Positions 16,282-25,674 of a stretch of 64,000 nt of DNA are shown here, one piece after another. A program made the translations under genes and the position numbers. The notes under the pieces were generated by a model. It saw nothing but the letters and a program-made list of their open reading frames with translations. It searched no databases and had not been told where the DNA came from. This DNA is from a virus (taxonomy: Duplodnaviria; Heunggongvirae; Uroviricota; Caudoviricetes), in IMG/VR virus record IMGVR_UViG_3300024270_000011; one strand, written 5' to 3'. The first letter of the stretch is position 1. Each line of letters opens with the position of its first letter.

Positions 16282-16531
16282 AGTATCAATTCCTTTCTGG
16301 TTTGTTGGGTTTTCCTTCCCTTTGATGATTTAATTATATCATAGGTTGAGCGATTTGTCAAGAGGTTTTTTGAAGTTTTTTTATTTTTTTTCTCAACTCT
16401 CTGTTGACTTCTCTCTCCCTTTGATGTATTCATTATAGCACATCTTGGGGGATTTGTCAAGAGGTTTTTTGAAATTTCTTAAAAACTTTTTTTGACCTCT
16501 ATCAATTCGGCTCTCCCTTACTGACAATAAT

Positions 16532-16702
16532 AGTATACCACAGACCAAGAGAAAATACAAGTGTCAAAATGCACAAATTTTAGGAAAATTATTTTTTATT
16601 TTTTGTGCAACTTTTCTCTTGACAAAATTTGCGGCCGGTGGTATAATGGAAAATTCCGGTCACGCTGGCCGTGACCGGGCCGGCGCTTTGTGCAAAATGC
16701 AC
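16532..16702. repeat. Back-to-back promoter cassette, copy 2 (both promoters intact)
   Basis: Plus TTGACA 16619, N17, TATAAT 16642; boxes 9 nt from each -35; hairpin CCGGTCACG/CGTGACCGG. Confidence 0.9.
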
Positions 16703-17706: not shown

Positions 17707-17808
17707 TATTTATTATAGCACACTCGGCGCTATTTGTCAAGAGGTTTTTTAACTTTTTTCAAAGTTTTTTTGAGCTCCTCTTGGGTGCTCCCCTCACCTG
17801 ACATAGAT

Positions 17809-17960
17809 AGTATACCACATCCAGAAGCAGATTGCAATAGACAGAATGCACAAATTACAGGATTTTTATTTCTCGATCTTTGTGCACATTTTCTCTTGAC
17901 AAAAATGCCGGGGTATGGTATAATGGTAAATTCCGCGCGCTACGTTCGTGCGCGCGGCGC
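17809..17960. repeat. Back-to-back promoter cassette, copy 3 (both promoters intact)
   Basis: Plus TTGACA 17896, TATAAT 17919; hairpin CCGCGCGC/GTGCGCGG-like. Confidence 0.9.
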
Positions 17961-20867: not shown

Positions 20868-21220
20868 AGTATCAATCTCCAATCTCGTGGTAGGTCACGA
20901 CCCAAGTTTTTATTCTGTAAGAGGTGTCCCTCTTTACATTCTTATTATAGCACATTGGGAGTTGTTTGTCAAGAGGTTTTTTCAACTTTTTTTTTATTTT
21001 TTTTGTTGACCTCTCAGTAGGTTTTCCCTTACCTTGTATAACTATTATAGCATACTCTTTAGGATTTGTCAATACCTTTTTCAAAACTTTTTTAGAAATT
21101 TTTTGGTAATGGCTTTTTCCTTTTTTCTATAATAATTATAACATAATTTTTTTATTTTGTCAATAGGTTTTTTCAAAATCTTTTTGATGGGATTTTGTTC
21201 TCTCCCTTACTGACAATAAT

Positions 21221-21372
21221 AGTATACCACATCAGCCACCAAAATACAAGTGGCAAATTGCACAAAATTACAGGAAAATCTTTGTGCATTTTGCCTATTG
21301 ACAAATTGCTCGAAAAATGTTATAATGGAAGGTTAGGCCAAAACACCGGTCCGCGCGCACGTGGACCGGCCG
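21221..21372. repeat. Back-to-back promoter cassette, copy 5 (both promoters intact)
   Basis: Plus TTGACA 21298, TATAAT 21321; hairpin CCGGTCC/GGACCGG. Confidence 0.9.
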
Positions 21373-22660: not shown

Positions 22661-22749
22661 TGTTCCTGTCTCCTTTTCTGTTCCGTTCTTTGTATCTTTA
22701 TTATAGCACCGCATTGACCGTTTGTCAAGCACTTTTTTTATTTTTTTTG

Positions 22750-22840
22750 AAAAAGATGAGGGGCTTTTAGGGGCGTCCCCCAAGGGGTTTGAACCCTTTC
22801 TGCTTGAGCGGCTCAGCATTAAACCTCACCCCTCATCTGT
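22750..22840 (-). ncRNA. tRNA-like small RNA with a T-arm
   Basis: AGATGAGGGG/CCCCTCATCT 10-bp terminal stem, TGCTGAG-CCG-CTCAAGCA arm, AAGGG-TTCAAAC-CCCTT T-arm, GGGG-ACG-CCCC arm, 3' T-tract; begins about 6 nt after a -10 box. Confidence 0.65.
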
Positions 22841-22846
22841 AAGTAC

Positions 22847-22998
22847 AGTATAACACACTCCCCAATAGAAGTCAATAGTCAAAATGCACAAATTTCAGGA
22901 ATTTGACCTCTCGCAACTTTGTGCAAATTGCCTATTGACAAAATGCTGAGGAAGTGTTATAATGGAAATTCGTGCCGCCTGGGTCGTGGGCGGCGCGC
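22847..22998. repeat. Back-to-back promoter cassette, copy 6 (both promoters intact)
   Basis: Plus TTGACA 22935, TATAAT 22958; hairpin GCCGCC/GGCGGC. Confidence 0.9.
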
Positions 22999-25644: not shown

Positions 25645-25674
25645 AGTTATTACCCCCTCATCTTTTGTACCTTA

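Follow-up and report, generated by a model that had tools for sequence, protein, structure and literature searches.

Structured RNAs of phages have been catalogued from IMG/VR, and the catalogue reports tRNA-like candidates as well as many candidates that contain terminators (PMC10690425). The unit described here, at 22750..22840 on the minus strand, resembles those RNAs in being short and free of ORFs, in having a stable predicted fold and a terminator-like end, and in lying between genes, but unlike them it shows no covariation. With tRNA (RF00005), and with the tRNA-like genes that related phages carry at the same position, it shares a 5-pair stem, a UUCAAAC loop, a G-C closing pair, a four-way junction and a helix that follows the T-arm-like hairpin without a linker. 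Unlike tRNA, it lacks a D-arm, a 7-nt anticodon loop and CCA, its T-arm-like hairpin is followed by a closed hairpin rather than by an acceptor stem, and the two ends of the RNA lie in a different helix.

The YrlA and Y RNA mimics (RF02553, Ro60/Rsr) are similar to the unit as small non-coding RNAs, which the unit is predicted to be, with a T-arm-like module and paired ends, but the RF02553 model misses the unit and the genome has no gene with a TROVE domain. Branched intrinsic terminators and attenuator leaders share with it a G+C-rich helix followed by a U-tract, with a promoter upstream and a gene downstream. It differs from these in that its 'loop' is 63 nt long and carries three hairpins, in that the whole unit is conserved and not the helix alone, and in that the gene downstream has its own promoter.

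The phage genome and its early promoter cassettes

The window, which is the whole stretch of 64,000 nt that was analysed, corresponds to the reverse strand of an IMG/VR virus record of 192 kb, which is 98% complete. The large terminase is closest to those of large Enterococcus, Geobacillus, and Bacillus phages, and the sequencing runs that hold this DNA, as assembled contigs, are animal faecal and bovine gut metagenomes. The non-coding parts of the dense early regions in large phages of gut Bacillota are almost unstudied. Here, a consensus scan finds some 30 perfect TTGACA-N17-TATAAT promoters on the minus strand between about 15 and 31 kb, which is roughly one for each small gene.

Dispersed among the minus-strand promoters of the early region are eight copies of a promoter cassette, each made up of a minus promoter with a TATACT -10 element, inverted TGCACAAA/TTTGTGCA boxes, and a G+C-rich hairpin, with a perfect plus-strand promoter in four of the eight. 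The unit sits directly downstream of the minus promoter of cassette 6 (22847..22875, minus strand), which by consensus scan consists of TTGACT, a 17-nt spacer ending in TGT, and TATACT, matching the consensus at 10 of 12 positions and having the TG extension in addition. The rest of the cassette (22876..22967, no strand assigned), with its inverted boxes, forms the regulatory context of the promoter of the RNA and includes a plus-strand promoter of perfect consensus at 22935-22963. Transcription from the plus-strand cassette promoters at 22935-22963, 16619, 17896, and 21298 would enter the G+C hairpin and then the upstream minus-strand gene at its 3' end, and would yield short antisense RNAs.

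Promoter, ends and fold of the predicted RNA

Reading along the minus strand, the TATACT element, which ends at 22847, is followed by GTACTT and then by ACAGATGAGGGG. The sequence ACAGAUGAGGGG begins 7 nt after the -10 element, and transcription is predicted to start at A22840, which is numbered A1 of the RNA, the last U being at 22750. The predicted RNA (22750..22840, minus strand) is about 91 nt long and is the block that is kept between the two phage lineages compared below. A sequence-only reading of this locus had described an 88-nt RNA running from promoter to terminator; the unit is indeed discrete, with conservation that matches the predicted transcript ends, although its predicted length is now about 91 nt. 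The start site, the perfect pairing of the ends (10 bp in that reading, 11 pairs here), the U-tract, and the three arms are all present in the sequence.

The closing helix, P1, is formed by AGAUGAGGGG(U) with (G)CCCCUCAUCU and has 11 pairs, with probabilities of 0.87-1.00 in the folding ensemble, and UUUU directly after it. The 5' strand of P1 (RNA positions 3-13, 22828..22838), which is also an SD-like leader, pairs with the 3' strand (RNA positions 77-87, 22754..22764). Within the helix, and like it on the minus strand, a single-stranded joiner, GAGGUUUAAUG (22817..22827), exposes an SD-like GAGG and an AUG at 22819-22817. This is followed by the first inner hairpin, P2, GCUGAG-CCG-CUC(A)AGC (22802..22817), by the T-arm-like hairpin, AAGGG-UUCAAAC-CCCUU (22782..22798), and by P4, GGGGG-ACG-CCCCU (22769..22781), which abuts the T-arm-like hairpin with no linker. 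The U-tract (22750..22754) lies directly after P1 and with it makes an intrinsic-terminator-like end. Outside the RNA, still on the minus strand, an A-rich upstream element and a perfect TTGACA-N17-TATAAT promoter occupy 22700..22749; this is the promoter of the next gene, P0004 (22660-22172, minus strand).

The 103-nt stretch that includes the unit folds at -38.6 kcal/mol, against -26.5 ± 3.4 kcal/mol for shuffled sequences (z = -3.5), and none of the 200 shuffles folds as well. The end of the unit has the form of an intrinsic terminator, a G+C-rich 11-pair helix and then UUUU on the transcribed strand, at which termination is predicted; with its 63-nt 'loop', it is passed over by a simple terminator scan. 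In the sequence, the unit has what would be expected of a small-RNA gene, in that there is a promoter and a terminator of its own, no complete ORF, and conservation bounded by the predicted transcript ends.

Assembled contigs of DNA runs contain the unit. A relative at 94-97% is present in two RNA libraries, in which the assembled contigs end at 22779 and resume at 22832, missing 22780-22831. Joints that seem to skip part of the unit in run X14 were considered and set aside; their short sides match poorly, and other cassettes or phages are the probable source.

Conservation between two phage lineages

The unit was compared between lineage A, the phages of the window, and lineage B, contigs L185-L192, which were reached through contig L183, found in a metagenome scan for the T-arm string. 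The collection has 55 blocks with the zinc-ribbon protein that lineage B encodes upstream of the unit, and their contigs are as long as 179 kb. Over 4 kb the two lineages are 70-72% identical. At the amino acid level the zinc-ribbon gene is 39% and the downstream gene 23% identical, and four-fold sites differ at 27% in the NT5C gene and at 36% in a gene of 81 residues.

Within the unit, 89 of the 91 bases are identical. Indeed, the best 91-nt segment in the whole 4-kb comparison is 22841-22751, which is the predicted transcript, while the runner-up, at 94.5% identity, is inside a coding gene. Just outside the unit, identity is 69% in the promoter (22847-22875), 49% in the rest of the cassette, which in lineage B is a different version of the L139 type, and 70% in the region of the next promoter. 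The lineage B promoter, TTGACA-N17-TATACT, is placed at the same distance from the same start.

The eight copies from lineage B come from different samples and have variable flanks, yet not one base differs among them from the start to the end of the closing helix. The sequence-only reading had held that conservation of the terminal stem without the T-loop would reduce the unit to a simple terminator or UTR; in the event, the inner hairpins, the T-arm-like one among them, are unchanged in each of the 11 other copies that were read. Lineage B differs from the window by A36->G (22805) in P2, which converts a U-A pair to U-G, and by C80->U (22761) in P1, which converts a G-C pair to G-U. At strain level, C31->G (22810) in the loop of P2 is found in the relatives L146 and L184 (98-99% identical), which keep the unit, and the same change is seen in run X14. 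The three variable sites therefore all fit the fold, two being G-U conversions and one lying in a loop, but two structure-preserving transitions would arise by chance with a probability that we estimate at about one in four, and are weak evidence. The covariation that the earlier reading had named as a check is not seen, as no pair has changed on both sides in the copies compared.

The near-identity of the unit across the lineages could reflect either purifying selection or recent exchange. In either case, the block that has been exchanged or retained extends exactly from the predicted start to the terminator, as would be expected if it were a functional module, given the mosaic make-up of phage genomes. 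The unit is also independent of its neighbours, being absent from L136, in which the next gene is 96% identical, and present in lineage B, in which the next gene is 23% and the upstream gene 39% identical. The connection that had been drawn to an ArfA-like gene 0.6 kb downstream is thus one of proximity only, given that the unit is missing from L136 with the same neighbours and is found beside a different gene in lineage B.

In L183, the segment L183:169-668 contains a T-box leader (67 bits; the Rfam gathering threshold is 93) and a threonyl-tRNA synthetase fragment comprising the first 57 residues (TGS domain), both convergent to the unit and approximately 150 nt from it. This adjacency was considered as a link to tRNA sensing and was rejected. 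Eight other lineage B contigs have a normal phage gene there, so L183 is either a chimeric assembly or a rare rearrangement that captured host DNA.

A BLAST search with the unit and its flanks found no match among 50,697 phage records, and against 32 related IMG/VR records the A-tract and the promoter were matched, but not the unit. Exact-pattern scans of IMG/VR with four parts of the unit gave no homologous copy; the P2 pattern had one site, in a 50-kb record.

The same position in sister cassettes and related phages

The stretch between a cassette promoter and the next strong promoter, referred to here as the slot, differs in content between cassettes. The 5' strand of P1 is homologous to the leader of cassette 7, GATGAGGGGG, which precedes a real gene (at 25662); the sequence in front of this gene is ACAAAAGATGAGGGGGTAATAACTATG, and that of the unit is ACAGATGAGGGGTGAGGTTTAATG, with the same spacing. 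Given that the 5' strand of P1 is an ordinary SD-type leader, the closing helix could stem from an inverted copy of the leader. Cassettes 2, 3, and 5 have SD-like leaders of approximately 40-55 nt, without an ORF or a terminator, which run into the next strong promoter. The absence of such an RNA from these three cassettes means that the slot need not hold a functional product.

Across relatives, compared by tracing the homologues of P0004 into related phages, the slot is hypervariable. In L136, with the same gene order, there is an unrelated leader of 45 nt, and L139-L145 have yet another, about 55 nt long. The slot of L152, L119, and L121-L126 contains structured units of other kinds, 100-170 nt in length. 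In the case of L149:1340-1413 and L151:41-114, the slot holds a tRNA-like gene, which scores 45.3 and 43.2 bits with the Rfam tRNA model but is not called by ARAGORN. In this gene the anticodon loop is CCGACAG, with C at position 33, the T-stem is bulged, and CCA is lacking; three acceptor and two anticodon-stem pairs show compensatory changes between the two copies. The next-gene homologue at L149:1501-2037 yields its stored protein only if TAG is decoded as Q, which hints at a recoded stop codon in some phages of the group.

The leaders of the cassette promoters start with (U)UGUCAAGAGG-like words, the complement of CCUCUUGACA, which is the -35 region of the next strong promoter. The theme is seen in the window at 16511-16545, 17788-17820, and 21200-21235, as well as in L149, L139, and L197:1501-1612. 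Because the leader is complementary to the next -35 region, an RNA reading through the slot would close it with a helix of about 10-11 pairs. The closing helix of the unit is a variant of this pairing between leader and -35 region, placed before a U-tract.

An RNA model of the unit, R2, was used to search 33 records, and the only strong match was to the unit itself, the others being short terminator-like hairpins and a site in the relative G021. The latter is matched over its full length, at 19.8 bits by default and at 10.4 bits with the filters off. At this site a promoter is followed by a leader whose 11-pair closing helix has the -35 region of the following promoter as its partner; the leader also contains a hairpin and then CGGG-UUCGAAU-CCCG, a second hairpin, and after it come a promoter and five tRNA genes. 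BLAST with the G021 unit found no relatives. The layout resembles that of the unit, but as the match is marginal, it is used as context only.

Likeness to tRNA

The unit is not a tRNA, being missed by ARAGORN, by Rfam, and by two models built here; the sequence-only reading had likewise not taken it for a standard tRNA and had correctly described it as having neither an anticodon arm nor a CCA. ARAGORN finds no tRNA in the window and none at this site when the whole genome is searched, even with relaxed thresholds; the 37 tRNAs that it does find are elsewhere in the genome, at 136.6-152 kb. Rfam gives nothing at its gathering thresholds and, in a 401-nt search, nothing related to tRNA at E <= 10, and the unit is absent from Rfam 15. 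The tmRNA models of ARAGORN and Rfam do not match it. When the T-arm and tail alone (38 nt) were searched in truncated mode, the Rfam tRNA model gave 9.7 bits (E = 7.4), against a cut-off of 29. Model R1, built from the tRNA-like genes in the slot of the relatives, matches the ordinary tRNAs of the phage and misses the unit.

The arm that had been called a canonical T-arm is present, and its UUCAAAC loop with a G-C closing pair agrees with the T-loop consensus (U54 U55 C56 R57 A58, G53-C61). It is, nevertheless, one of two registers, with an ensemble probability of about 0.3 versus 0.66 for the tetraloop register GGGU-UCAA-ACCC, although forcing the T-arm register costs only 0.5 kcal/mol. The motif, a stem of five Watson-Crick pairs with a TTCRANY loop, has two occurrences in the 192-kb genome outside the tRNA array; in shuffled sequences the mean is 0.73, with at least one copy in 52%, which makes this a chance frequency. 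Three arms are enclosed by the closing helix, but the topology is not that of a tRNA, as the additional P4 hairpin intervenes between the T-arm-like hairpin and the closing helix. The order of the hairpins also departs from that of tmRNA and YrlA, to which the unit had been compared.

The tail of the unit is identical to that of E. coli tRNA-Glu (gltU, NC_000913.3) at 20 of 25 positions, with seven of the eight positions of the acceptor strand and discriminator being the same, whereas against the phage's own tRNAs it reaches at most 16 of 25. As a string, P4 resembles the 3' acceptor strand and discriminator of this tRNA. The likeness is not counted as evidence, since thousands of tRNA tails are available for comparison and the string forms a hairpin of its own. 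There is no GUCCCCC 5' strand with which to make an open acceptor stem, and the sequence is CCC rather than CCA. Overall, the tRNA likeness of the unit is no stronger than chance.

No exact match to the 22-mer GGGTTCAAACCCCTTGGGGGAC, which spans the T-arm and tail, turned up when a single genome was searched for each of 185,579 species, so the reading of this stretch as a host tRNA or an attachment site fails. That there is no Ro60 gene, as had been noted for the sequence at hand, holds for the entire genome, where no TROVE/Ro60 gene is found by searches whose controls responded. The YrlA model RF02553 does not match the unit and has matches only inside the tRNA array, below its cut-off. The possibility that the unit mimics a CRISPR repeat, as an RNA anti-CRISPR, was also tried and rejected, as the P2-region pattern gave 15 single scattered matches and no arrays, and the CRISPR-DR39 match scores 13 bits against a cut-off of 39.

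Reading frame through the unit

The AUG at 22819-22817 opens a frame that meets no stop before the terminator and continues through the next promoter into the next gene, giving 215 codons (22819-22172, minus strand). A product of the same length is called in L136, from a TTG inside the promoter. Since the frame is open in L136 as well, from this promoter TTG, the 215-residue frame is an artefact of the A-rich promoter sequence, and the 215-residue product was rejected as an annotation trap. When the translation of the unit in this frame was used for a protein search, no called ORF was found to share the peptide. One of the three variable sites is synonymous in this frame, while two are non-synonymous (R to G, P to L). 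A leader peptide or a stop-less translated frame is unlikely.

Interpretation of the unit

The reading that is favoured here, with a probability of approximately 0.5, is that the unit is an autonomous gene for an early small RNA, in which the closing helix doubles as the terminator. Host RNA polymerase would start at A22840 and the three inner hairpins would fold first, after which the emerging 3' strand, CCCCUCAUCU, would pair with the 5' end, and the 11-pair helix with its U-tract would end transcription. The product would be an RNA of about 91 nt, with its two ends locked together and a four-way junction. Carrying its own start and stop, such a unit would be exchangeable as a cassette, and it may have been swapped between phages at the conserved -10 and A-tract sequences. 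From these features we infer that the RNA is produced, that its 3' end is at the U-tract, and that it acts in trans as a stable, structured, protein-binding RNA made early in infection. In cis, its terminator would stop the cassette promoter from reading into the next gene. The presence in the slot of relatives of other promoter-driven non-coding units, including the two tRNA-like genes, supports an RNA gene, while the fact that only two lineages are known to carry the unit counts against one.

The main rival is that the unit is only a cis-acting terminator or insulator, with a helix and U-tract that stop the cassette transcripts and an inner 63 nt that is a functionless passenger. This has a small but real likelihood, as the helix and U-tract lie exactly between two promoters, no trans target is known, and in relatives, too, leaders from this kind of promoter have a 5' end that pairs with sequence at the end of the slot, the partner in L149 and G021 being the -35 region of the next promoter. 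A passenger insert does not account well for the retention of all 91 nt at 98%, beyond the helix itself; a simple hairpin would suffice, as it does in the other terminators of the region, and cassettes 2, 3, and 5 and the relative L136 have no terminator here at all. That the unit is instead a functionless relic, a decayed tRNA or a cassette fragment caught between an inverted pair of leaders and recently spread by recombination, would be in keeping with a closing helix made of a common leader motif and its inverse, with the hypervariability of the slot, and with the restriction of the unit to two lineages. It is improbable for a sequence that is the most conserved segment in 4 kb, with boundaries matching the predicted transcript ends on both sides and eight of eight lineage B copies identical from start through closing helix despite their varying flanks.

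It has also been proposed, in the sequence-only reading, that the RNA may be a tRNA decoy for anticodon nucleases or uncharged-tRNA sensors (RelA, T-boxes). In the form considered here, the T-arm-like hairpin, stacked on P4, would imitate the acceptor/T-arm half of a tRNA and would occupy a host factor, such as a T-loop modification enzyme, a tRNA-targeting defence nuclease, or another tRNA sensor. The fit of the loop and its closing pair to the T-loop consensus, the linker-free junction with the next helix, as between T-arm and acceptor stem, the invariance of the hairpin in all copies, the resemblance of the tail to tRNA-Glu, the tRNA-like genes in the same slot of relatives, and the similar leader of G021, with its CGGG-UUCGAAU-CCCG hairpin just before five tRNA genes, all point this way. 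It is doubtful all the same, as every statistical test made here is neutral or negative. The motif is no commoner than chance, the tRNA model stays at 9.7 bits even in the 38-nt search, the R1 and YrlA models miss the unit and there is no Ro60 gene, a D-loop partner, an anticodon arm, and a CCA are all lacking, the tetraloop register is thermodynamically favoured, and the G021 match falls to 10.4 bits with the filters off. The more specific version, a permuted, anticodon-less mimic of the upper half of a tRNA, in which the T-arm is stacked on a loop-closed acceptor-like helix and the RNA ends are at the place of the D-arm, is quite unlikely. Least probable is a leader with a short frame, whose GAGG and AUG (22819) would recruit ribosomes, leading either to attenuation, with ribosome binding to the 5' strand of the helix blocking termination, or to translation to the end of a stop-less RNA. 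In its favour, the SD and the AUG are spaced as in the real gene of cassette 7, the frame stays open as far as the terminator and past it, and one of the three variable sites is synonymous. These points are offset by the lack of a stop codon before the terminator, the two non-synonymous changes, the open continuation from the promoter TTG in L136 that marks an effect of A-rich sequence, the absence of the peptide from called proteins, and the perfect promoter that the next gene has for itself.

If the unit is an RNA gene, as is preferred here, one position in the early region would work as a slot for interchangeable small RNA genes. One variant is nearly invariant across lineages that differ at about a third of the silent sites in neighbouring genes. 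The points of interest are the behaviour of the slot and conservation that is exact to the predicted transcript. Were the RNA made, the unit would offer a tractable entry point to the roles of early phage RNAs, including the possible imitation of tRNA parts, since the module lends itself to deletion, or to replacement by the short leader that occurs naturally in a close relative. Were the mimic to be true, phages of the gut would be swapping a cassette that occupies a host factor recognising the tRNA elbow or the acceptor/T-arm domain, for which a tRNA-directed defence nuclease or a T-loop modification enzyme would be the candidate targets. If the unit is only a terminator, it is an ordinary feature.

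Other tRNA-like sequences in the phage genome

Among the 37 tRNAs of the phage, Gly(tcc) at G000:136672-136744 and Asn(gtt) at G000:141308-141381 differ from the other 35 in that their acceptor stems are A+U-rich and CCA is not encoded. Within the tRNA array, the YrlA model gives scores below its cut-off in two gaps where ARAGORN makes no tRNA call, 30.6 bits in L215 (G000:137540-137657) and 29.8 bits in L216 (G000:146428-146534), and these may be further non-canonical tRNA-like RNAs.
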